The position numbers and the translations under genes are program-made. From contig CAKOKD010000003.1 in assembly GCA_934090935.1 (NCBI GenBank), forward strand, positions 92,604 through 156,603: a stretch of DNA of 64,000 nucleotides. Direction: 5' to 3'. The notes beneath the pieces are model-generated. The model worked only from the letters and a program-made list of their open reading frames with translations. It did not search any database and was not told the origin of the DNA. Source of the stretch: an uncultured Bacilli bacterium (GTDB lineage: Bacteria > Bacillota_I > Bacilli_A > RF39 > UBA660). Shown piece by piece: positions 7,504-57,321 of this stretch (position 1 is the stretch's first letter; each line of letters begins with the position of its first letter).

Positions 7504-7530
7504 ATTTTATAATACCCCCCCGATTTTCAA
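7504..7530 (-). promoter_or_regulatory. phase-variable-type promoter: -35 TTGAAA (7525..7530), G7 tract (7515..7521), -10 TAAAAT (7504..7509); spacer 15
   Basis: The coding strand reads cTTGAAAatcGGGGGGGtattaTAAAATaaaaa. The same element recurs with G8 or G9 at five other loci. Confidence 0.6.
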
Positions 7531-7681
7531 GTCATTTTGGAGGGTTTACACTACTTCTTGTAAATATCCTACTGTATAACTTTATTATACTACATATTTG
7601 TTGTATTTTACTTATTTTATTTTTTTATGTGTAAAGTCAAAAAAAGCACTTAAGTTTTAATCCTTAAATGCTTATTTATTT

Positions 7682-14109: not shown

Positions 14110-16269
14110 TTAATCAAATATGCTTTTACACTTAGTTACTTCGCCATCTAAATGCCATCCGTCATTAGTGTTATATTTTAATACATACCATTCAAATTGA
14201 CAGTCTTTCTTTAAAAAGTTTTTCTTTTCATACTTTTTAATAGCTTGTTCTTCTATTGATTTTAGCTCTATCTTTGATTCAGCAGTCATATAATTATATA
14301 TTTCATCTTGATTTAATGATAAAACGGCTTCATGTTTTTTATTTTTCTTAGCCTCTGCTATTATATTGCTGATTCTGTTTGACGATAAAACAAATTTAAT
14401 TTTTTTATTCTTTCCTAATTCTTCATACCAAATAGGATTTCTACCTGCTCCATTGCTTGGTCTGTTAAGTACTTTTAATCTATATAGTCTTGTTGTTGCA
14501 ATTCCAAGTTTTTCATATACAGCTTCAATATTTGTATTCTCTTTTATATTTTTTAAAGATTTATTCCATTTTTTAAACTCTAAATAATAAGGATTTTCTC
14601 CATCAACATATACTAAAGAATCATATTTAGGTTCTTCTACAGCTTCATCATATTTAACTTTCTTTTGAGTTTCTACTAAAGCATTATTTTGATAATATTT
14701 AAATGTAACAATAAACTCTTTTTTGCTTGTAGTTGCATAATATGATGTATCCTTAGAAGGCATTGTTTCATCAACCTTCCAAGAACTAAATGTATATCCT
14801 TCTTTTACTTTATAATCAGGTAGTTTTATTTTCTCTCCATATTTATAATTTTCTTCTTTATATAAATCATTATCTATAAAGAATTTTGCTTTATAAGTTT
14901 CTAAATCATAAGTGATAGTTAGTACTAAACTTCCATCTGCTTTAATAATACCAGTTAGAATAGATTTTTCTTTGTTGATTTTATAACCAGACTTTTTATC
15001 ATTTAAAGTTATTTTTTCATTTGTTTTGCCAGTTTTAACTTTCTCATTTTCTTTATAAGTACCATCTAGATTTTCTAATCTTTCAATTATTTTATACTTA
15101 GTGTTTTCACTTTCTTTGAAAAGTGCTTTTAAAGATAAATCGCCTGTTGTTCCTCGTTTTATCTCATCCACTTTTTTTCCGGATTCATCCTCCCATGAAA
15201 CAAATACATATCCTTGTTTTTCTATTTTGTTTAATTTAAATGTCTTTGTTTCTATAGTATATGAAGTTTTATTATCAGTTTTACTTCCACCATTTAAATC
15301 ATATTCAATCTTATAAGTAATTAGATTATATTCAGCTTTGATAACTAAATCACTTTTAATATTTTTTTCACTTTTATTCCATGATTTAAAAGTATAACCT
15401 GTTCTTTCTTTTACTTCAGGAATTGTTGCATCATTTCCATATTTAACAGTTTGTTCACTTATAATAGTATCATTATAATCAACAAATTTAACTTTAAAAG
15501 TCATATTATTTATCTTTTCGATAATCTCTTCTATTTTCTTAGTTTCTTTATCGATTTCTTCTTGAGTTGACTTTTCATTATCAATAATTTTTTCAGCTGA
15601 TTTTATCTCTTTTTCTAAATCAGCAAGTATTTTTTTTGCCTTTGAATCATCAGTTGAATAAAGATATTCTTTTGATCTTTTAATAGCGTTTTTTAATTCT
15701 GTATCATCAACGACTGTAATAGTTCTTGTAACTGTTAATGCTGCGTTTTTACTTGAATCTGTTACATCATAAGTTACTTTATAAACTCCTTTTTTAGAAG
15801 TATCAACCATATTTTTAGTAACAATCTTTTTTGTTAAATCACCATCATAGTTGTCACGTGCTTTAGCTTTTAAATCATTGTAAACTGTATTAATTCTAAT
15901 TATTTCATCACTTCCATTTAAAGTGATAACTGGTGCAGTTGTATCAACAACAAGGAATTCTTTTTTTATTTCATTTGATAATCCAGCTTCATCAGTAGCA
16001 ATAAATGTTACTTCATATTTTCCTACCTTTTTATTGTTGATATTGTTTTCGATTTTTAAAGTAACATTATCTGCAACTTTTCCGTTAAATTTTGGAATGT
16101 TATCAAATACTTCTATTTTAAATTTATTACCTGTTATATCTATATCAGGTTTTGTAGAAGTTGATATTAAAGTTTCACTTCCATTTTCTTCACTTGGATT
16201 AGCAAATGAGAATGCAAAGAATCCAAAGAAAACAAATATTATAAGTGCAAGTAATTTCTTCTTATCCAT
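14110..16269 (-). CDS. secreted surface protein with Ig-like (DUF5011-type) domain and Listeria-Bacteroides (flg_new) repeats
   Basis: Signal peptide present. DTTAPVITLNGSDEI...YDGDLT is Ig-like. Repeated modules have the pattern YxVxFxxNGG...GYTFxxW (e.g. VKFVDYNDTIISEQTVKYGNDATIPE...GYTFKSWN). Confidence 0.7.
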   Translation of the reverse strand: MDKKKLLALIIFVFFGFFAFSFANPSEENGSETLISTSTKPDIDITGNKFKIEVFDNIPKFNGKVADNVTLKIENNINNKKVGKYEVTFIATDEAGLSNEIKKEFLVVDTTAPVITLNGSDEIIRINTVYNDLKAKARDNYDGDLTKKIVTKNMVDTSKKGVYKVTYDVTDSSKNAALTVTRTITVVDDTELKNAIKRSKEYLYSTDDSKAKKILADLEKEIKSAEKIIDNEKSTQEEIDKETKKIEEIIEKINNMTFKVKFVDYNDTIISEQTVKYGNDATIPEVKERTGYTFKSWNKSEKNIKSDLVIKAEYNLITYKIEYDLNGGSKTDNKTSYTIETKTFKLNKIEKQGYVFVSWEDESGKKVDEIKRGTTGDLSLKALFKESENTKYKIIERLENLDGTYKENEKVKTGKTNEKITLNDKKSGYKINKEKSILTGIIKADGSLVLTITYDLETYKAKFFIDNDLYKEENYKYGEKIKLPDYKVKEGYTFSSWKVDETMPSKDTSYYATTSKKEFIVTFKYYQNNALVETQKKVKYDEAVEEPKYDSLVYVDGENPYYLEFKKWNKSLKNIKENTNIEAVYEKLGIATTRLYRLKVLNRPSNGAGRNPIWYEELGKNKKIKFVLSSNRISNIIAEAKKNKKHEAVLSLNQDEIYNYMTAESKIELKSIEEQAIKKYEKKNFLKKDCQFEWYVLKYNTNDGWHLDGEVTKCKSIFD

Positions 16270-16602: not shown

Positions 16603-16722
16603 ACTCGCGTATAAATGCAACTGACTACCTTTATTTCATATGAAATAATAAGGCTCTTGAGCTTTGCGTCACTACATTTCTATAGTTTTGCCCTAATCTA
16701 CTTTAATAAAATATAACATAAT

Positions 16723-18997: not shown

Positions 18998-19025
18998 ATT
19001 TTATAATACCCCCCCCGATTGTCAA
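18998..19025 (-). promoter_or_regulatory. phase-variable-type promoter: -35 TTGACA (19020..19025), G8 tract (19009..19016), -10 TAAAAT (18998..19003); spacer 16
   Basis: The coding strand reads TTGACAatcGGGGGGGGtattaTAAAAT, then the leader with AAGGAAAG RBS and ATG at 18970. Confidence 0.6.
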
Positions 19026-19069
19026 ATTTTTCTGTTGAAAAGTTGTAAAGTTCGTGTTATATTTTATTT

Positions 19070-19151
19070 AGTGAGAAGCAAAGTTTCTTTAGGACGCGAT
19101 GCTTACCACCATTGGTGTTTGCACCTTTTTCAAAAGAAAAGGTGCTTTTTT
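19070..19151 (+). ncRNA. candidate antisense small RNA (type I antitoxin-like), promoter TTGAAA-17-TATATT at 19035..19063, intrinsic terminator 19121..19151
   Basis: Promoter, repeat motif A (GTGAGAAGCAAAGTTTCTTTAGGACGCGATGCTTACCAC), then GCACCTTTT-tcaaaag-AAAAGGTGC plus TTTTTT. No ORF. Convergent with the peptide ORF. Confidence 0.4.
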
Positions 19152-19156
19152 ATAGT

Positions 19157-19252
19157 TTATATTCCTTTTTTACAAAGTAGATATAATAATATAAAAATTA
19201 TAACGAATAAACTTACAATTAAAACATCTGTTTTAAATGATTTCTTAAACAT
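19157..19252 (-). CDS. 31-aa hydrophobic peptide (type I toxin-like): MFKKSFKTDVLIVSLFVIIFILLYLLCKKGI
   Basis: AAGGGAG RBS 9 nt before ATG. Single TM helix with charged ends. 5' UTR contains the reverse complement of motif B (19304..19339). Its 3' end overlaps the sRNA terminator. Confidence 0.4.
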   Translation of the reverse strand: MFKKSFKTDVLIVSLFVIIFILLYLLCKKGI

Positions 19253-19565
19253 TATAAATCACTCCCTTACTACAGCCTTTGCTGAAATTTACGTCCTACA
19301 TATAAGAAAGTGATAAGCATCTTTCCCTTGCTTCTCGAGTATTTATTTAAACATAATTTTTTTATATTTCAAAACTACAAAATTTTAAATTTGGAGTCTC
19401 AGATTTTTAATATCTGTAGCGATTTATATGCAAATCGTTAAAATCTGTCAAAAAAAAGCTACCAATTTTTAAGTTTAGTAGTTTTAACACTTTTTTTATA
19501 AAAAAAGAGTATTGAATAATCAATACCCTAAGCAAATTAAGTAAAATCTTAAATGCTTTAATATC

Positions 19566-24785: not shown

Positions 24786-26153
24786 TTATTTTATTAATGT
24801 TATACGTGCATATCCATTTCCTTGTTTAGAACAGTTTTCGGTTGGTGTTTCGCTTGTGCATGTAGTTGATATGGTTTTTGTTGACTCTTCACTAGATTCA
24901 GTACAGTTGTAACAATACATCGATTTTTCGGATAAAAGTGAATTTCCTATGTATCCTGAACCTCCGCCAGCGGTATATCCAGCAACAGTTCCACCATAGA
25001 AACCTCCACCGCCTCCAGCCCAGGCCAAAGTGCCTCCACCGCCTTGACCAAATGTTCCAAAATTAGGATTATTTTTATTTGAAGACTCATTCACTGAATT
25101 ATATATTCTTTTGCCTCCATTTGTTTGGGTTCCTCCAAATCCTTGATAGGGTTTGCCTGAAGATGCTGCTATATAAGATCCCGAGTTTCCTCCAATATAA
25201 CCACCACCGGATCCAGAAACTATTTTATAATTATGGTCGTTATTACCACCACCGGCTCCTCCTCCAGAAACAATTAATACATCATCAATGTTATTATTAA
25301 AAGCATATAGTAAACCAGATTCTAATGCTATGTGTGTCGCACCACCTCCACTTGCATTATATGAATTAGTAGCCGAATTAAATGATGCAGATCCTCCTCC
25401 ATTATAGCCGCCTTCTTTGTTTACCCAAGTTAATTCTCCAAGGCCTTGTCCTCCAATATTAATATAAAACTTATTATTCTTTTCTAAATAAATTATTCCT
25501 TGAGAATACCCTCCATATCCACCAGAAATATTTACAGTTTTTCCACCTTCTGCTCCCCAAGTTTCAAGCTTATATGTTCCATTTACTGGAACTTCAAATG
25601 TTTGTTCATCTCCAGTATAATCAAATGTCCATTCTGTTGGTCCATCGTAACTAACACCTAATTCTGTTCTTTCTACGGCATTAAATTCTAATGAACATGT
25701 ATATTCTTCAGTTGTTTCTTCTATTGATTGTTTATCTAAGGTAACAGTTAATGTTCCATTTAATGTTTCGTTTGCTTTTACAACTGTTGCATTTCCTTCT
25801 AATTCATTTTTGATACTTGTATATTTTGCTGTTGTTCCGTCCTTTGGTACACATATAACACGCACTTCTGCATCATAGTTTGCTGAATTGTTTGTTACTT
25901 CATATGTTAGTACTGATGTATCATTTAGTTTTTTTAGGTCTTTACTTTTAAATGTTATTGTCTTCTTTGTATCATCTGTTACTTCATCATATACATCTAT
26001 TCCATCTAATGTTGCTGCTGTAAATATTACTGAATAATCATCTGTATTTTCATTTACTTTTGCATTTCCATTTATTATCAATGTTGTACTTACTGCTGCA
26101 AATCCAATTGACATCAATATTATTGCTACTACTAACATGCTCTTCTTTTTCAT
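24786..26153 (-). CDS. variable secreted protein paralog: conserved N-module + ALK/LTK-like glycine-rich (poly-Gly) domain + Cys-containing C-terminal tail
   Basis: N-module MKKKSMLVVAIILMSIGFAAVSTT... Then PTEWTFDYTGDEQTFEVPVNGTYKLETWGAEGG...GGYGGYSQG...GGGATHIALESGLL...LIVSGGGAGGG... Tail YCYNCTESSEESTKTISTTCTSETPTENCSKQGNGYARITLIK. Confidence 0.8.
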   Translation of the reverse strand: MKKKSMLVVAIILMSIGFAAVSTTLIINGNAKVNENTDDYSVIFTAATLDGIDVYDEVTDDTKKTITFKSKDLKKLNDTSVLTYEVTNNSANYDAEVRVICVPKDGTTAKYTSIKNELEGNATVVKANETLNGTLTVTLDKQSIEETTEEYTCSLEFNAVERTELGVSYDGPTEWTFDYTGDEQTFEVPVNGTYKLETWGAEGGKTVNISGGYGGYSQGIIYLEKNNKFYINIGGQGLGELTWVNKEGGYNGGGSASFNSATNSYNASGGGATHIALESGLLYAFNNNIDDVLIVSGGGAGGGNNDHNYKIVSGSGGGYIGGNSGSYIAASSGKPYQGFGGTQTNGGKRIYNSVNESSNKNNPNFGTFGQGGGGTLAWAGGGGGFYGGTVAGYTAGGGSGYIGNSLLSEKSMYCYNCTESSEESTKTISTTCTSETPTENCSKQGNGYARITLIK

Positions 26154-26180
26154 ATTCTACCTACTTTCCTTTACTTTTTT

Positions 26181-26208
26181 ATTTTATAATACCCCCCCCG
26201 ATTTTCAA
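26181..26208 (-). promoter_or_regulatory. phase-variable-type promoter: -35 TTGAAA (26203..26208), G8 (26192..26199), -10 TAAAAT (26181..26186); spacer 16
   Basis: Same element as the other copies. Followed upstream by an about 130-bp block shared with 31835..31960. Confidence 0.6.
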
Positions 26209-26340
26209 GGGCATTATCTTGTTTTACATTACTTTTGTCGTCTTTTTTATTTTGTTCTCCTATTGTTTCTTATATTATACAACATTTTTATTGTGCTTTG
26301 TATATTCATTTTTATTATGTGTAAAATATTTGTTTTAAAT

Positions 26341-29600: not shown

Positions 29601-31772
29601 TTATTTTATTAAAGTTATACGTGCGTATCCATTTCCTTGTTTTGAACAATTTGCTGTTGGCGTTGCACTTGTGCATGTAGTTGAAATTGTTTTTGTGGAC
29701 TCTTCAGTAGATGTAGCACAGTTATAACAATACATCACTTTTTCGGATAATTTTGAATTACCGATGTATCCTGAACCACCGGCTGCTGAAGAACCATTAT
29801 AATAAGCTCCGCCTCCACCATAAAGTCCACTTCCGCCTCCAGATGCGCTTTGAGTTTTCTCGTAATTTCCTCCATAACCGAATCCTCCATTAGAAATCGT
29901 TAAAGCTGTACTTCCATTAGTTCCATATTTGCTTTGTGAACCTCCAGTTGCTAAACTATCTTTCTCTGTTATTCCATTAGATCCTAAATAACCTCCACCA
30001 GATCCTCCTGAATGTGGATTGTATGGAGATTGGGGAGTTGTTAGATACTTTTTATAGTGCCAACCGGCTCCTCCGCCTCCACCAGAAACAATAAGAACAT
30101 TTTCAATATTATTGCTATAATTTTTTAACTGACCATCATCTATCAATAAGTTCTGAATGGAAGTTGCTCCGCCTCCAGCTCCCCAGACTGTTCCTCCATC
30201 TGATTTTGCGTTTCCTCCTCCATTATAGCCACCATCATATATTTTAACTGTAGAATAATCATCTCCATCAGTTCCTTTTCCTCCAACTATAATATATAAA
30301 ATATCATTTTTATTTAAAGTAACTACTCCTTTTGAATATCCACCATATCCACCAAGAGCCTCGCTTGTTTGAGCATAACCACCTTGTGCTCCCCATGTCT
30401 CTAACTTATATGTTCCAGATACTGAGGCAGTAAATGTTTGCTCGCCTCCTGTATAATCAAATGTCCATTCAGTTGGACTTTTATATGCTTTTTCTGTTCT
30501 AGATATTTTATTAACCTTTAACTTACAAGTAAAATTCTCCATATTGATATTCTCTAGTGTTATAGTCTTCCTATCTTGAGCTTCAATAGTTATTGGATCT
30601 GTTGATATTTTACTATCTTTATCATTTAAAACTAAAGTAATACGTGCATATCCGTTTCCTTGTTTTGAACAGTTTTCGGTTGGTGTTTCATTTGTACATG
30701 TTGTTGATATGGTTTTTGTTGACTCCTCACTAGATTCAGTACAGTTATAGCAATACATCACTTTTTCGGATAATTTTGAATTTCCAATGTAACTTGAACC
30801 ACCTCCAGCTCCTTGTAAAGTACCTGATGTACCGCCATATAAACCGCCTCCGCCACTAATTGTACCAGTATTTATATTTGTTCTTCCTGTACCAAATGAA
30901 CCATTATACTTGCCGCTTGTGTCAAGTGAATTATAGCTTTCTGTTTGAGTTCCACCTACTCCACAAACATAGCCTTTTTTACCATTATATGCATCATGAC
31001 AATCATAAGCGGAAACACCGATATAACCACCAGCATGTCCACCTTTTCCGTTCCAACCACCATGGTTAGAACAACCGCCTCCGCCTCCAGAGACAATAAT
31101 TAAATTTTCAAGACTATTTTTAAACGTAGTTAATAATCCAGAAGATGTTGCTATATGTGTTGCACCTCCGCCTGATGACACTCTTCCAGAGGTATCCGCG
31201 CTTCTTTTGGAATGACCTCCTCCATTATATCCTCCATTGACTAAATTTTTATCACTTGTTCCATTGTTAGCTTTGCCTGAACCGCCAACATTTATATATA
31301 AAACGTCATCCTTATTAAGTGTTGTTGTACCAGACGAATATCCACCGTAACCTCCAAAGTATGTTGAATCGATTACTCCACCTTGTGCTCCCCATGTCTC
31401 TAACTTATATGTAGCAGACATTGGTGCTGTAAATGTTTGTTCAGCACCTGTATAATCAAATGTCCATTCAGTTTTATCTGGTACTATATTATTTTCACAT
31501 TCAATATAACTTTCTGTGTCATATTCTGTTGAATCATTTACTATATCTATACTTATATTTCCATCTATATTGCTTAAAGTAAATTCATCTTTTGTTGCAT
31601 TTATTCCTGTATTTTCTGTATCATTTACTTTTAAATTATCTAAATATACCTTAAAATCACTTATGTTTTCTGATATTTTACCTAATCCATATATATTTAC
31701 TGTTGCATTATATGCTGCATACCCTATTATCATAAATAAAACAGTAACTAGCATTATTGTCGTCTTTTTCAT
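29601..31772 (-). CDS. large secreted protein with two ALK/LTK-like glycine-rich domains, each followed by the Cys-containing tail
   Basis: Signal MKKTTIMLVTVLFMIIGYAAYNATVNIYG. Two copies of TEWTFDYTGxEQTFTAxxSxTYKLETWGAQGG...GGYGGYS...GGGAT...SGGGGG...YCYNCxxSxEESTKTISTTCT..PT.NCSKQGNGYARITL. Confidence 0.75.
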   Translation of the reverse strand: MKKTTIMLVTVLFMIIGYAAYNATVNIYGLGKISENISDFKVYLDNLKVNDTENTGINATKDEFTLSNIDGNISIDIVNDSTEYDTESYIECENNIVPDKTEWTFDYTGAEQTFTAPMSATYKLETWGAQGGVIDSTYFGGYGGYSSGTTTLNKDDVLYINVGGSGKANNGTSDKNLVNGGYNGGGHSKRSADTSGRVSSGGGATHIATSSGLLTTFKNSLENLIIVSGGGGGCSNHGGWNGKGGHAGGYIGVSAYDCHDAYNGKKGYVCGVGGTQTESYNSLDTSGKYNGSFGTGRTNINTGTISGGGGLYGGTSGTLQGAGGGSSYIGNSKLSEKVMYCYNCTESSEESTKTISTTCTNETPTENCSKQGNGYARITLVLNDKDSKISTDPITIEAQDRKTITLENINMENFTCKLKVNKISRTEKAYKSPTEWTFDYTGGEQTFTASVSGTYKLETWGAQGGYAQTSEALGGYGGYSKGVVTLNKNDILYIIVGGKGTDGDDYSTVKIYDGGYNGGGNAKSDGGTVWGAGGGATSIQNLLIDDGQLKNYSNNIENVLIVSGGGGGAGWHYKKYLTTPQSPYNPHSGGSGGGYLGSNGITEKDSLATGGSQSKYGTNGSTALTISNGGFGYGGNYEKTQSASGGGSGLYGGGGAYYNGSSAAGGSGYIGNSKLSEKVMYCYNCATSTEESTKTISTTCTSATPTANCSKQGNGYARITLIK

Positions 31773-31799
31773 TTCTACACCTTCGCATCTTACTTTTTT

Positions 31800-31827
31800 A
31801 TTTTATAATACCCCCCCCGATTTTCAA
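31800..31827 (-). promoter_or_regulatory. phase-variable-type promoter: -35 TTGAAA (31822..31827), G8 (31811..31818), -10 TAAAAT (31800..31805); spacer 16
   Basis: Identical architecture to the 26181..26208 copy. Confidence 0.6.
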
Positions 31828-31998
31828 GGGCATTGTCTTGTTTTACATAACTTTTGTCGTCTGTTTTATTTTGCAGTTGTATTATATCTTATATTATACA
31901 ACATTTTCGTTGTATTTTGCATATTCATTTTTATTATGCGTAAAGTGTATTTATTTATTATCATTGTAATTTATATTGAAAAATGTTATATTTATTTT

Positions 31999-32089
31999 AG
32001 TGAGAAGCAGAAGTTTTCTTTTGAGGCTGATGCTTACCACGTGTTATGTGTACGCATCCTTATTCAGTAGAATAAAGATGCTTTTTTTT
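31999..32089 (+). ncRNA. candidate antisense small RNA copy 2 (promoter TTGTAA-17-TATATT at 31964..31992; terminator 32054..32089)
   Basis: Motif A (GTGAGAAGCAGAAGTTTTCTTTTGAGGCTGATGCTTACCAC), then GCATCCTTATTC-agta-GAATAAAGATGC plus T8. Convergent with the 27-aa peptide ORF, whose stop lies in the U-tract. Confidence 0.4.
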
Positions 32090-32171
32090 ATTGCCATAAT
32101 AATTTTAAAATTATTACTAGCAATATAAAAACGATTAGATAAAGTAATCTTATATGATTATCTTTTTTCAT
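32088..32171 (-). CDS. 27-aa hydrophobic peptide (type I toxin-like): MKKDNHIRLLYLIVFILLVIILKLLWQ
   Basis: AGAGGAAG RBS 7 nt before ATG. Near-consensus promoter TTGACA(32289..32294)-16-TATAAT(32267..32272) fires directly into the reverse complement of motif B (32229..32261). Confidence 0.45.
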   Translation of the reverse strand: MKKDNHIRLLYLIVFILLVIILKLLWQ

Positions 32172-32344
32172 CGTATCACTTCCTCTCGTACTCCTTAACC
32201 AAAACCCTGAATATTTAGCCTCTAGTTTGGAAGTGATAAGCACCTTTTTCTGCTTCTCGAGTTTGTATTATATATGCTAAATTTTTCTTGTCAATAAATC
32301 CGACAAATGTCGACAAAATTAGAACCTAAAAAAAATAAAATATA

Positions 32345-32369
32345 TAAAAAAAATCGCATTCTTGCGATT
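32345..32369 (-). terminator. rho-independent terminator of 32368..34497 (stop codon lies inside the hairpin)
   Basis: Minus-strand AATCGCAAGAATGCGATT plus TTTTTTTT. Confidence 0.5.
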
Positions 32370-34497
32370 ATTTTATTAAGGTAATACGTGCGTATCCGTT
32401 TCCTTGTTTTGAACAGTTTGCTGTTGGAGTTTCATTTGTACATGTAGTTGATATAGTTTTTGTTGCCTCTTCACTAGACTCGGTACATTTATAACAATAC
32501 ATTGATTTTTCACTTAATTGTGAATTTCCTATATATCCTGAGCCTCCACCAGCTCCAGCATAATGTGAAAAACCGCCTCCATAAAAGCCAGCACCTCCTC
32601 CGGCTCCAGAAGTTCCTGTATCATATCCACCAATTCCAAAGACTCCATAATTAGTTGTTCTTATACCATGATCTGTACTAGAGTTATATCCATTTCCATA
32701 AACTACAGTTCCACCACTTGTTTGACTTCCTCCAAAGCCTATCCAATAGTAATCACCACTGTTGGTTCCATCGTTACCTTTGTATCCACCACCGGCTCCT
32801 CCAGATCCACTATAAGATGAAGAGTCATTTGTTCGATATCCAAAAGCTGCTCCTCCGCCTCCGGAAACCATTAAGATGGAATCAAGATCGTTTTGTAGAT
32901 TTTCTAGTCTTTCACTTTTTAGTAAAATATAACTAGCATCTCCTCCATCACTACTTCCTTTATAAACTTCATTTCCTTGACCTCCACCAAAGACTTTGTT
33001 TTGTCCACCAACAGTTATATATAAATTATCTTTTTTGTTTAGATAAATTTCTCCAATAGAATATCCTCCATATCCTCCGATATAGGAAACTCCCGCCTTT
33101 GAAGTTGCATTACCTCCTTGTGCTCCCCATGTCTCTAACTTATATGTTCCACTTGTTGGTGCTGTAAATGTTTGCTCTAATCCAGTATAATCAAATGTCC
33201 ATTCAGTTGAGCCTGTATATATTTCTTCTTTTGTCGTTCTTGATATCTTGTTAACTTTTAATTTACAAGTGAAATTCTCCATATTAATATTCTCTAATGT
33301 TATTGACTTCTTATCTTGTGCTTCTATTGTTACCACTTCTGTTGAAGTAATTTCTTTTGAATTACTTGAAACTAGAGTAATACGAGCGTATCCATTGCCT
33401 TGCTTTGCACAATTTTCAGTTGCTGTTGATGAAGTACATGTAGTTGAAATGGTTTTTGTTGACTCTTCATCTGACTCAGCACAGTTATAGCAATACATTG
33501 ATTTTTCACTTAATTGTGAATTACCAATATATCCTGAGCCACCTCCAGCGCCTCCATGGAAACTACCTCCGCCTCCATAAAAGCCAGCACCTCCGCCACA
33601 AGCAACATAATTTGCCACAGTTGATCCAAATCCTTTACCAAATGTACCAATACATGCTCGATATCCGCTTGATGTTCCTTTTATCCAGACCATATCTCCT
33701 CCAGTTGTTTGACTACCACCTGTTCCATAACCATATCCATATCCGTTAGTATGGTTAACTGACTCTCCGTTGTTTCCTTTTATTCCTCCGGCAGATCCTC
33801 CGTTTCCATCTCCATAACCTGAGCCTCTGTTTGCTGCTCCGCCTCCACCTCCAGAAACAATCAATATGTTTTCTTTTTTAGTTTCAAAAGTGGATAATAA
33901 TCCCGATAAATCTGCTATATGTGTTGCTCCGCCGCCAGCTTTTCCGTAATTGCCATTATTAACGTACCCACCGCCATTATATCCTCCGGTAAGAGCAACT
34001 CCTTGACCACCTGCATTTATATATAGAATTTTTCCACCTTCTAAGGTCATTTTACCAGAAGAATATCCGCCATAGCCTTCAAAATAATTTGATGAATAAG
34101 ACCCACCTTGTGCTCCCCATGTTTCAAGCTTGTATGTTCCACTTATTGGTGCTGTAAATGTTTGCTCCGATCCTGTGTAATCAAATGTCCATTCAGTTTT
34201 CTCCGGTGTTACATTGCTTTCACACTCAAGATAACTTTCTGTGTCATATTCTGTTGAATCATTTACTATATCTATACTTATGTTTCCATTTATATTGCTT
34301 AAAGTAAATTCGTCTTTTGCATCATTTATTCCTGTACTTTCCGTATCATTTACTTTTAAATTATCTAAATATACTTTAAAGTCACTTATGTTTTCTTCTA
34401 GTTTACCCAATCCATATATATTCACTGTTGCATTATAAGCAGAAAAACCTATCACCATAAACAATATTGTTAAAAGCAAAATGATTCCTTTCTTCAT
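32368..34497 (-). CDS. large secreted protein with two ALK/LTK-like glycine-rich domains (tandem paralog of 29601..31772)
   Basis: MKKGIILLLTILFMVIGFSAYNATVNIYG... Same two-domain organisation and the same C-terminal tail. No poly-G promoter upstream. Confidence 0.75.
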   Translation of the reverse strand: MKKGIILLLTILFMVIGFSAYNATVNIYGLGKLEENISDFKVYLDNLKVNDTESTGINDAKDEFTLSNINGNISIDIVNDSTEYDTESYLECESNVTPEKTEWTFDYTGSEQTFTAPISGTYKLETWGAQGGSYSSNYFEGYGGYSSGKMTLEGGKILYINAGGQGVALTGGYNGGGYVNNGNYGKAGGGATHIADLSGLLSTFETKKENILIVSGGGGGAANRGSGYGDGNGGSAGGIKGNNGESVNHTNGYGYGYGTGGSQTTGGDMVWIKGTSSGYRACIGTFGKGFGSTVANYVACGGGAGFYGGGGSFHGGAGGGSGYIGNSQLSEKSMYCYNCAESDEESTKTISTTCTSSTATENCAKQGNGYARITLVSSNSKEITSTEVVTIEAQDKKSITLENINMENFTCKLKVNKISRTTKEEIYTGSTEWTFDYTGLEQTFTAPTSGTYKLETWGAQGGNATSKAGVSYIGGYGGYSIGEIYLNKKDNLYITVGGQNKVFGGGQGNEVYKGSSDGGDASYILLKSERLENLQNDLDSILMVSGGGGAAFGYRTNDSSSYSGSGGAGGGYKGNDGTNSGDYYWIGFGGSQTSGGTVVYGNGYNSSTDHGIRTTNYGVFGIGGYDTGTSGAGGGAGFYGGGFSHYAGAGGGSGYIGNSQLSEKSMYCYKCTESSEEATKTISTTCTNETPTANCSKQGNGYARITLIK

Positions 34498-38573: not shown

Positions 38574-38601
38574 ATTTTATAATACCCCCCCCGATTTTCA
38601 A
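38574..38601 (-). promoter_or_regulatory. phase-variable-type promoter copy: -35 TTGAAA (38596..38601), G8 (38585..38592), -10 TAAAAT (38574..38579)
   Basis: Same element. Here it is upstream of a non-paralog cargo gene. Confidence 0.55.
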
Positions 38602-42931: not shown

Positions 42932-43006
42932 TGGTGTCCTAGATGAGAATCGAACTCATATCTAAGCTTTAGGAGAGCCTTGTACTATCCATTGTACTAC
43001 CAGGAC
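42932..43006 (-). tRNA. tRNA-Arg (anticodon CCU), CCA-encoded
   Basis: Reverse complement GTCCTGG-TA-GTAC..GTAC-A-AGGCT-CTCCTAA-AGCTT-AGAT-ATGAG-TTCGATT-CTCAT-CTAGGAC-A-CCA. Cloverleaf with 7-bp acceptor stem (one G-U), TPsiC GTTCGATTC. Anticodon loop CU-CCU-AA. Confidence 0.8.
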
Positions 43007-52811: not shown

Positions 52812-52973
52812 ATCCTATATTAAAATTATAGCATTACAAATAATTGATGTAAACTATATTATGACAAATTTCGACATTTTAACCATTAATTAGTTTAACC
52901 AAATTTAAAAAATTTACTCGCTTTTTACTTGTGATTAATTCAATCGTATTTTATAATTAGTTTAGGTGATGAT

Positions 52974-57294: not shown

Positions 57295-57321
57295 AGTATA
57301 TCATCCCCCCCCGATTTTCAA
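57295..57321 (-). promoter_or_regulatory. phase-variable-type promoter: -35 TTGAAA (57316..57321), G9 tract (57304..57312), -10 TATACT (57295..57300) preceded by TG; spacer 15
   Basis: The coding strand reads TTGAAAatcGGGGGGGGGatgTATACTaaaa. Longest G tract, and a different -10 from the other copies. Confidence 0.55.

Follow-up and report, generated by a model that had tools for sequence, protein, structure and literature searches.

Toxin-antitoxin (TA) systems of type I are catalogued almost exclusively from cultured Proteobacteria and Firmicutes, with T1TAdb listing 24 families, and those of Gram-positive bacteria follow a pattern in which the antisense RNA is encoded on the 3' side of the toxin gene and transcribed convergently with it (PMC8594479). 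In the bsrG/SR4 system, binding of SR4 at the 3' end of the bsrG mRNA remodels the helix that sequesters the Shine-Dalgarno (SD) sequence (PMC3834814), and for both AapA1 and hok a long-distance 5'-3' interaction leaves the full-length mRNA translationally inactive (PMC5416894). Members of the Fst/Ldr family are recognised by a transmembrane (TM) helix with the motif P/D/S/TXXXG(C), together with a Trp that is conserved and a C-terminal tail that is highly charged (PMC7472228). Here, we describe an intergenic region of 595 bp (31773-32367) within a 64,000-nucleotide stretch of contig CAKOKD010000003.1 from an uncultured Bacilli bacterium (this whole stretch being referred to as the window), which probably represents one copy of a chromosomal type I TA-like module that belongs to an undescribed family and is of the Gram-positive, 3'-convergent kind.

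Results

Two predicted convergent transcription units in the intergenic region

As read from the sequence, the region appears to comprise two convergent transcription units, the first being a minus-strand mRNA that would be transcribed from a consensus sigma-A-type promoter and would encode a 27-amino acid (aa) peptide, and the second a plus-strand small RNA (sRNA) that would be driven by an extended -10 promoter and would end at a strong intrinsic terminator next to the stop codon of the peptide. The single-helix peptide would act as a membrane-active toxin. The features of this copy (named copy 2, the window also holding a copy 1) are listed below, where a, b and c denote sequence blocks, ORF an open reading frame, UTR an untranslated region and anti-SD the segment predicted to pair with the SD region.

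31964-31992, plus strand: sRNA promoter with -35 TTGTAA (31964-69), 17-nt spacer and -10 TATATT (31987-92), 9/12 match to consensus, extended -10 TG at 31984-85
31999-32089, plus strand: candidate antitoxin sRNA of ~90 nt, with 5' hairpin domain (32000-32040), G/U-rich linker (32041-53), terminator stem-loop (32054-81) and U8 (32082-89)
32002-09, 32023-28 and 32029-40, plus strand: sRNA blocks a (GAGAAGCA), c (GAGGCT) and b (GATGCTTACCAC), respectively, with the apical hairpin between a and c
32088-32171, minus strand: ORF of the 27-aa hydrophobic peptide (candidate toxin), MKKDNHIRLLYLIVFILLVIILKLLWQ, with ATG start and a stop codon that overlaps the sRNA U-tract by 2 nt
32172-32262, minus strand: toxin mRNA 5'UTR with blocks a and b, anti-SD, block c, TTCAGGG and SD region
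32258-32251, 32244-32233 and 32222-32217, minus-strand sense: leader blocks a (GAGAAGCA), b (GGTGCTTATCAC) and c (GAGGCT), respectively
32239-32229, minus strand: anti-SD of the leader, TTATCACTTCC
32183-32174, minus strand: SD region of the leader, GGAAGTGATA
32267-32294, minus strand: toxin promoter TTGACA-16-TATAAT, 12/12 match to consensus
32300-32318, minus strand: two TTGTCGA-like direct repeats, 10 bp apart, TTTTGTCGACATTTGTCGG, located 5-6 bp upstream of the -35 and containing the palindrome TGTCGACA at 32308-32315

The type I TA reading had been put forward in an earlier note on this stretch, and is supported by the two promoters, covariation in the sRNA, a conserved ORF, a helix between anti-SD and SD, and the occurrence of the module in multiple copies and in tandem. 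The sRNA promoter and the sequence designated motif A (32000-32040) were recovered where that note had placed them, as were the 27-aa ORF with its stop codon in the U-tract (of which it covers the last two T residues) and the 8-bp palindrome upstream of the toxin -35, and the toxin promoter that had been called near-consensus turned out to match at every position. All coordinates given in that note agree with the sequence. The +1 of the toxin transcript, which had been placed exactly at the edge of motif B' (motif B read on the toxin strand; core 32233-32258), is predicted within ~3 nt of the 5' edge. The terminator (32054-32081) required adjustment: it had been given a 12-bp stem, whereas it is followed by U8 as proposed but consists of 11 pairs and one C/A mismatch.

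Copy 1, for which the same architecture had also been claimed, was indeed found to share the layout. It occupies positions 19035-19373, between a DUF6273 gene and fpg.

19035..19063, plus strand: sRNA promoter TTGAAA-17-TATATT with TG
19070..19152, plus strand: sRNA, scoring 86.2 bits with covariance model R1 (match at 19070-19151; see below)
19157..19252, minus strand: ORF of a 31-aa peptide, MFKKSFKTDVLIVSLFVIIFILLYLLCKKGI
19253..19340, minus strand: toxin 5'UTR, comprising block a, block b, the anti-SD ATCACTTTCTT, block c (TAGGACG) and the SD region AAGGGAGTGAT
19346..19373, minus strand: presumed toxin promoter TTGAAA-16-(TGt)TTAAAT, read from the sequence and conserved in the copy 1 subfamily, not reported by the consensus scan

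The toxin promoter of copy 1 is weaker than that of copy 2, and the subfamily to which copy 1 belongs is without TTGTCGA repeats.

A multicopy family in uncultured gut Bacilli

One genome per GTDB species was scanned for the pattern GTGAGAAGCA-N(5-30)-TGCTTACCAC, which yielded 78 loci, and a covariance model (CM R1) built from the sRNAs of relatives was used to sort these loci. Within the window, CM R1 detects exactly two copies, namely copy 2 with 94.3 bits (E = 1e-18) and copy 1, the next best match scoring 22 bits. These scores, and the recurrence of the entire layout in 59 distinct modules elsewhere, place the arrangement well beyond coincidence. The true copies number ~70 and score between 55 and 99 bits, the model additionally finding extra tandem copies. 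Seven of the 78 loci, from Pantoea, Bacteroidales and others, are chance occurrences of the pattern without a CM R1 match. The true copies reside in metagenome-assembled genomes (MAGs) labelled uncultured Bacilli, Bacillota, Erysipelotrichaceae, 'Firmicutes bacterium CAG:582' or Muribaculaceae, the last label being taken as wrong because the MAGs concerned carry the same low-GC modules. The sequences at hand thus place the family in a lineage of uncultured low-GC gut Bacilli, to which it appears to be confined.

Between three and nine copies matching the exact motif are present per assembly, and tandem arrays of two or three complete modules were encountered at five loci (L023, L031, L032, L038 and L089). 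Loci of type I TA systems are typically multicopy and tandem in this manner. A diverged orphan sRNA that lacks a toxin partner was observed at L119:298-377, beside an antirepressor-like ORF. Among 59 distinct modules, motifs A and B' are separated by a constant distance of 237-274 nt, and both promoters are conserved in place and in sequence, beyond which the sequence diverges.

A conserved helix between anti-SD and SD

Across the family, the 5' end of the leader consists of GAGAAGCA, an A/G-rich loop and GAUGCUUAUCAC, and the predicted fold is one in which AUCAC and a pyrimidine extension pair with a purine-rich SD region that ends in GUGAU, 4-7 nt before the start codon. The leader of copy 2 (~90 nt), in which a conserved TTCAGGG motif (minus-strand sense) is also present, is predicted to form a 5' hairpin from GAGAAGCA and UGCUU, the 3' arm of which, together with the extension UUAUCACUUCC, pairs with the SD region GGAAGUGAUA.

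In 39 distinct leaders, the anti-SD:SD helix is paired in 94.9% of cells and shows changes on both sides at 7/10 pairs. When the 5' hairpin is counted as well, 95.9% of the structure is paired, versus 39-51% when the partner is slid, and none of 500 shuffles reaches the observed values, these sequences being motif-ascertained and interrelated. The compensation between anti-SD and SD includes AUCACAUUCC/GGAGUGUGAU (with a mirrored inserted pair), AUCACCUCU/AGAGGUGAU, AUCAGUUCC/GGGAGCUGAU and ACCAC/GUGGU, and extends to changes from C-G to G-C. A helix that is maintained through such compensatory changes argues for a structural lock on peptide synthesis, and translation of the 27-aa peptide is thus, as judged from these predicted structures, held in check by the anti-SD:SD helix, as in many type I toxin mRNAs.

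The candidate antitoxin sRNA

The sRNA promoter is conserved in position and sequence as TTGaaA-17-TGnTATAtT in an alignment of 59 modules, and the RNA that follows has a length of 76-92 nt and a common plan of 5' domain, variable G/U-rich linker and terminator. Motif A is predicted to constitute the 5' hairpin, built from the paired arms GUGAGAAGCA and UGCUUACCAC, which enclose an apical hairpin whose sequence varies across the family. For copy 2, the fold of the sRNA has a z-score of -3.4. Compensatory changes were recorded in five of eight terminator pairs and in both apical pairs, and the apical segments fold at -3.3 kcal/mol versus -0.7 kcal/mol for shuffled sequences. As the outer helix of the sRNA is fixed by the search pattern, copies were collected anew from metagenomes by means of the mRNA motif; the sRNA arms of copies ascertained in this manner are still nearly invariant, showing a single change of A-U to G-C and a single change of A-U to G.U, and they retain a C that is specific to the sRNA (UUACCAC in the sRNA versus UUAUCAC in the mRNA). 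Rfam contains no family matching the sRNA at either gathering or permissive thresholds, the weak matches to PyrR sites (18-19 bits versus a cut-off of 54 bits) being noise.

The U8 tract is present on the sRNA strand only, the complement of the hairpin being followed on the toxin strand by GUACACAUAAC in copy 2 and by A/C-rich linkers in all modules. Judging from these sequences, the terminator is unidirectional, so that the extent of the overlap between sRNA and toxin mRNA depends on where the 3' end of the mRNA lies. The toxin strand is without a U-tract past the complement of the terminator in every module, and the toxin mRNA therefore probably runs on, in antisense orientation, across the sRNA gene.

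Identical blocks in the sRNA and in the toxin leader

Motifs A and B are inverted with respect to each other in the DNA, and the two RNAs consequently carry identical rather than complementary segments. A third shared segment is the module-specific block c, which forms the loop and the 3' arm of the apical hairpin of the sRNA and is found again in the cognate leader, 10-15 nt past the anti-SD. Its sequence differs between subfamilies, being TAGGACG in copy 1, GAGGCT in copy 2, CCTTTGGGAT in L013 and ATTTAAGACT in L052. Among 16 representative modules, the longest common substring of same-sense block c averages 7.69 nt for cognate pairs versus 5.34 +/- 0.29 nt for permuted pairs, and 0 of 100,000 permuted pairings reach the cognate mean. 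The blocks follow the order a-d-c-b within the sRNA, that of the leader being a-b-d*-c; since they are not colinear, neither gene conversion nor a cruciform can explain their identity, and selection for identity is needed.

The sole partner within the module that is complementary to both sets of blocks is the strand antisense to the sRNA gene, i.e. the 3' tail that the toxin mRNA would acquire by read-through. As blocks a, b and c are common to the 5' domain of the sRNA and the 5'UTR of the toxin mRNA, the 5'UTR would itself be complementary to this tail. In the folds of hypothetical read-through mRNAs, 5'-3' pairing of a with a' and of b with b' is predicted in 10/10 diverse modules, and in several of them this pairing displaces the anti-SD from the SD. 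The complementarity between sRNA and mRNA amounts to up to 91 nt (-162 kcal/mol), only given mRNA read-through. For the two window copies, duplexes predicted with read-through have energies of -149 and -162 kcal/mol for cognate versus -80 and -83 kcal/mol for non-cognate pairs, and those predicted from overlap of the terminator only have energies of -50 and -56 versus -33 and -35 kcal/mol. Cross-pairing of the sRNAs with non-cognate mRNAs, a question raised in the earlier note, is thus possible to some extent via the shared arms, at about half the cognate energy in the read-through model, cognate pairs being strongly preferred in the predictions.

A mechanism may be sketched from these predictions. 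The sRNA and the mRNA 3' tail would form a perfect duplex of up to ~90 bp, leading to RNase III-type decay and/or refolding. The leader would pair with the tail imperfectly (a G.U pair arising at the U/C difference) and the sRNA perfectly, so that the two would compete for the tail, and this competition would feed into the anti-SD/SD lock, coupling binding of the sRNA to the switch. We tentatively propose that the antitoxin sRNA may be a module-specific mimic of the toxin mRNA 5'UTR, operating by target mimicry in a switch with three partners (SD, anti-SD and tail). We know of no type I TA family with a three-partner switch of this kind.

The toxin promoter and its upstream repeats

The toxin promoter is conserved as TTGACA-17-TATAAT in most modules. 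Paired TTGTCGA-like sites accompany it in 31/58 modules, always 10 bp apart, and in the window this paired site occurs as a single instance. Its phased repeats look like a putative binding site for a dimeric or tandem-binding regulator, and a transcription factor bound there, beside the -35, would probably set the level of toxin transcription. Such a regulator could explain why a promoter with a 12/12 consensus match is tolerated. One further similar sequence in the window is doubtful and may be due to chance, as 1.5 such matches are expected:

52861-52876, minus strand: TTGTCGA-repeat-like site, TGTCGAAATTTGTCAT, with 2 mismatches, located 50-65 nt upstream of a gene encoding a 2195-aa protein

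The peptide family and a possible but unlikely non-toxic function

SD-like sequences are located 6-8 nt upstream of both the 27-aa and the 31-aa ORF, and the small ORF is intact in 55/59 distinct modules, the start codon sometimes being GTG or TTG. The peptides across the family measure 23-31 aa, with a single, very hydrophobic stretch containing (I/V)IFILL that comes after a basic N-terminus (KKD). Both window peptides possess a hydrophobic core of 17 aa with a mean Kyte-Doolittle value of 3.2-3.35, the core of the copy 2 peptide (net charge +3) spanning residues 9-25 with a mean of 3.2. The earlier note regarded the peptides of the two copies as diverged, and this view was not borne out: they are 38% identical, share an (I/V)(I/V)FILL core and are joined by intermediate forms, all of which argues at sequence level that the peptides are one family.

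Within subfamilies, the ratio of nonsynonymous to synonymous polymorphism (pN/pS) of the ORF is 0.17, 0.39 and 0.49, the value of 0.17 pertaining to the subfamily of copy 2, and the second codon position is the least variable, which together represent the signature of a translated product. The proposal that selection acts on the RNA architecture thus holds insofar as compensatory changes occur in both sRNA and leader, and falls short insofar as the peptide is also conserved, so that selection acts on more than the RNA architecture.

One further feature is located within the ORF:

32097-32116: perfect 20-nt palindrome, TAATAATTTTAAAATTATTA, located in the last codons of the peptide ORF (IILKLL) and forming a hairpin right before the stop codon in predicted mRNA folds

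In the mechanical list of ORFs, the 27-aa ORF is nested in a 51-aa ORF with a GTG start (32088-32243). In some modules, an ORF runs from an AUG or GUG inside block b (G-AUG-CUUAUCAC) to a UGA within the SD region; its counterpart in copy 2 (32172-32243, minus strand) is in frame with the peptide, giving rise to the 51-aa ORF. A conserved leader ORF ending at UGA in the SD, as in mok or ldrX, was considered and rejected, as it is found in only 24/54 UTRs, with inconsistent frames and starts.

Searches against Pfam and NCBIfam assigned no toxin family to either window peptide, nor to a single one of 20 peptides of the family at a threshold as lenient as E <= 1, and in consequence the likeness to known toxin families that was to be sought with hidden Markov models did not materialise. 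An exact look-up of seven family peptides among 15 billion predicted proteins found none of them, phmmer with the 31-aa peptide against 1.84 billion representative proteins returned 0 matches, and in the literature no description of the peptide strings or of type I TA systems in related taxa was found.

Considering that the peptide is under purifying selection and bears no resemblance to a known toxin, and that the modules are chromosomal, not on phage contigs, and often beside surface-protein paralogs, it could be argued that they encode a small non-toxic membrane protein, i.e. an accessory or regulatory micro-protein, with a convergent antisense sRNA and a repressed leader. We hold this to be unlikely in view of the nine or more copies per small genome, the tandem arrays and orphan sRNA copies, the very tight sequestration of the SD, the dedicated convergent sRNA in every copy, and the composition of the peptide, which is little beyond one hydrophobic helix and a basic N-terminus. 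A multicopy and tandem layout, SD sequestration, a convergent sRNA and a one-helix peptide are hallmarks of type I TA systems and not of housekeeping micro-proteins.

Genomic setting and a possible but improbable role as a regulatory leader

The window organism is a human-gut bacterium present in Hadza and other metagenomes. As noted before, two glycine-rich genes flank copy 2; both are on the minus strand, and PF12810 matches identify their products as ALK/LTK-type glycine-rich-domain (GRD) proteins. They belong to a set of three paralogs:

24786-26153, 29601-31772 and 32368-34497, minus strand: ALK/LTK GRD proteins (PF12810, E down to 5e-74) with internal repeats

In strains L001 and L002, the number of GRD copies is lower by one and module copy 2 is missing as well, and in strain L004 copy 2 adjoins a Band_7 gene.

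Both neighbours share the orientation of the toxin gene in 30/37 modules for which two neighbours were scored, an arrangement that agrees with strand bias and with read-through being tolerated. In 38/46 modules the left neighbour is co-directional, and it starts 100-230 nt past the sRNA gene. In 16/49 modules a poly-C/G tract is located at <=300 nt from the module, inside the spacer of the promoter of the neighbouring gene. The tracts of the window, and a repeat that contains one of them, are as follows:

7515-7521, 19009-19016, 26192-26199, 31811-31818, 38585-38592 and 57305-57312: poly-C tracts, 7-8 nt long and reading as poly-G on the coding strand, within the spacer of a conserved promoter-like TTGAAA-16-TAAAAT
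31790-31944 and 26171-26325: leader/promoter repeat of 155 nt, 90% identical, upstream of two GRD genes, with the poly-C tract and a small hairpin that is conserved, TACAACGAAAATGTTGTA, inside it
7583-7637: shorter version of this repeat

The six tracts precede six minus-strand genes, those that were checked belonging to the DUF6273 or ALK_LTK_GRD surface-protein families, and the same locus in strain L004 has C9 instead of C8. The tracts look like elements for slipped-strand phase variation of promoter strength.

This setting raises the question of whether the module might serve as a regulatory leader for the downstream, co-directional and phase-variable GRD or DUF6273 gene, with read-through from the 'toxin' promoter being modulated by the sRNA and the hairpins. 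The missing terminator on the toxin strand, the position and orientation of the left neighbour and the nearby poly-G promoter tracts would all agree with such a role. We nevertheless consider it improbable, because the neighbours have a promoter of their own between module and gene, because modules are also found in tandem arrays or beside opposite-strand or unrelated genes, because the co-orientation may be plain strand bias (41/46 large ORFs of the window are on the minus strand), and because selection on the peptide sequence would be left unexplained.

Very little probability remains for a non-expressed repeat (resembling miniature inverted-repeat transposable elements or repetitive extragenic palindromes, with terminal inverted repeats) or for motifs A and B being DNA-protein operators, since the multicopy, intergenic occurrence and the inversion of motif A relative to motif B at ~190-200 bp are countered by conservation that reaches beyond the repeats as far as the two promoters and ends there, which means that the repeats are not terminal, by shared blocks whose lack of colinearity precludes a cruciform, by an ORF under purifying selection, and by G.U-tolerant covariation, an RNA-level signal which, together with half-sites that are 5-22 variable bases apart, unlike those of a fixed-spacing operator, rules out the operator reading that the earlier note had named as the competing explanation.

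Two further elements of the window are listed for completeness:

16613-16702, minus strand: c-di-GMP-I riboswitch (59.6 bits), upstream of a 719-aa ORF (14110-16269)
42935-43006, minus strand: tRNA gene (63.5 bits)

Discussion

Observations that weigh against a type I TA module

Several observations weigh against the interpretation of the locus as a type I TA module, or against parts of the mechanism proposed for it. Neither Pfam nor NCBIfam contains a known family of type I toxins that matches the peptide, which is also without relatives among 1.84 billion predicted proteins. The scan of IMG/VR viral contigs found no modules, its four matches all being chance occurrences inside coding sequence. 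The toxin promoter, with its 12/12 match, looks stronger than the sRNA promoter with 9/12 and TG. In the usual type I TA system the antitoxin is in excess, and a 12/12 toxin promoter is the reverse of this unless it is repressed via the TTGTCGA repeats. No module-specific complementarity in trans was detected between the sRNA and those parts of the mRNA that it does not overlap (5'UTR and translation initiation region), for which RNAduplex gives -19.7 kcal/mol for cognate and -20.5 kcal/mol for non-cognate pairs; likewise, the longest common substring in the Watson-Crick complementary sense is 5.75 for cognate versus 5.92 for non-cognate pairs in the inner segment, and 4.80 versus 4.89 in the linker. 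The order of the blocks is such that b:b' and c:c' cannot both nest in a simple fold-back. Finally, since the sequences are motif-ascertained and related, the shuffle statistics overstate their independence.

Significance

New type I TA families are unsurprising in themselves; what sets this module apart is its lineage, its copy number, its absence from annotation and the same-sense block. The family stems from an uncultured, probably reduced-genome lineage of gut Bacilli and is invisible to annotation, and with nine or more copies per genome it is likely to be a significant part of the biology of these organisms. The same-sense motifs, including a covarying module-specific block, are unlike the complementary-repeat logic of par and may reveal a different coupling between an antitoxin RNA and a translational switch. 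The ~60 natural variants with compensatory changes represent a data set for models of RNA switches or for the design of orthogonal RNA regulators, and the frequent adjacency to poly-G promoters of apparently phase-variable surface-protein genes provides a further lead.

Comparison with known type I systems

With respect to organisation, the module most resembles par (Fst/RNA II of E. faecalis pAD1) and its chromosomal homologues, among them SprA1/SprA1AS of S. aureus, with which it has in common two promoters that converge, a short 3'-side sRNA with a terminator that abuts the ORF without covering it, a toxin of ~30 aa comprising a charged N-terminus (K, D) and a single TM helix, sequestration of the SD by an intramolecular 5' stem, repeats close to the 5' end of each RNA and, in some cases, a location between paralogous genes (PMC7472228, PMC8594479). 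The differences from par concern the RNA logic: the DRa/DRb repeats of par are direct and, being transcribed from opposite directions, generate 5' complementarity that covers the translation initiation region, whereas the repeats of the module are inverted, so that motifs A and B' yield identical RNA segments and cannot act like DRa/DRb. Furthermore, the par terminator is shared and bidirectional, unlike that of the module. The peptides also depart from Fst/Ldr in having neither the PXXXG motif, a Pro/Gly TM motif nor the charged C-terminal tail, and Trp is present in some copies only.

The bsrG/SR4 and txpA/RatA systems of B. subtilis are likewise Gram-positive and have a convergent antitoxin complementary to the 3' region of the toxin mRNA, a property that the module would share given read-through. 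The effect of SR4 on the SD helix of bsrG offers a precedent for a distant influence on the anti-SD/SD helix (PMC3834814). Their antisense RNA, however, overlaps the 3' part of the ORF by 75-120 nt, versus an ORF overlap of 2 nt in the module, their toxins are unrelated and longer (38-59 aa versus 23-31 aa), and same-sense motifs do not occur in them. For TxpA/RatA, BsrG/SR4, BsrE/SR5 and YonT, no Rfam match at the permissive threshold and no protein-family match was obtained.

In the Gram-negative systems hok/Sok and aapA1/IsoA1 of H. pylori, the likeness resides in the pairing of the 5'UTR with the 3' end of its own mRNA, which for the module is a prediction from folding. These systems differ in that their antisense RNA targets the 5' region and not the 3' tail, whereas the tail of the module would be exactly antisense to the antitoxin gene, giving rise to competition between antitoxin and 5'UTR. 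To our knowledge, such competition for the tail is a feature of neither hok/Sok nor aapA1/IsoA1.

Because the module lacks the Fst signature, direct repeats that would provide complementarity and a bidirectional terminator, and matches no model, it is filed as a new family. Taken as a whole, the comparison suggests a new type I TA family and, at the same time, a new architectural variant, whose closest counterparts by organisation would be par/Fst and SprA1.

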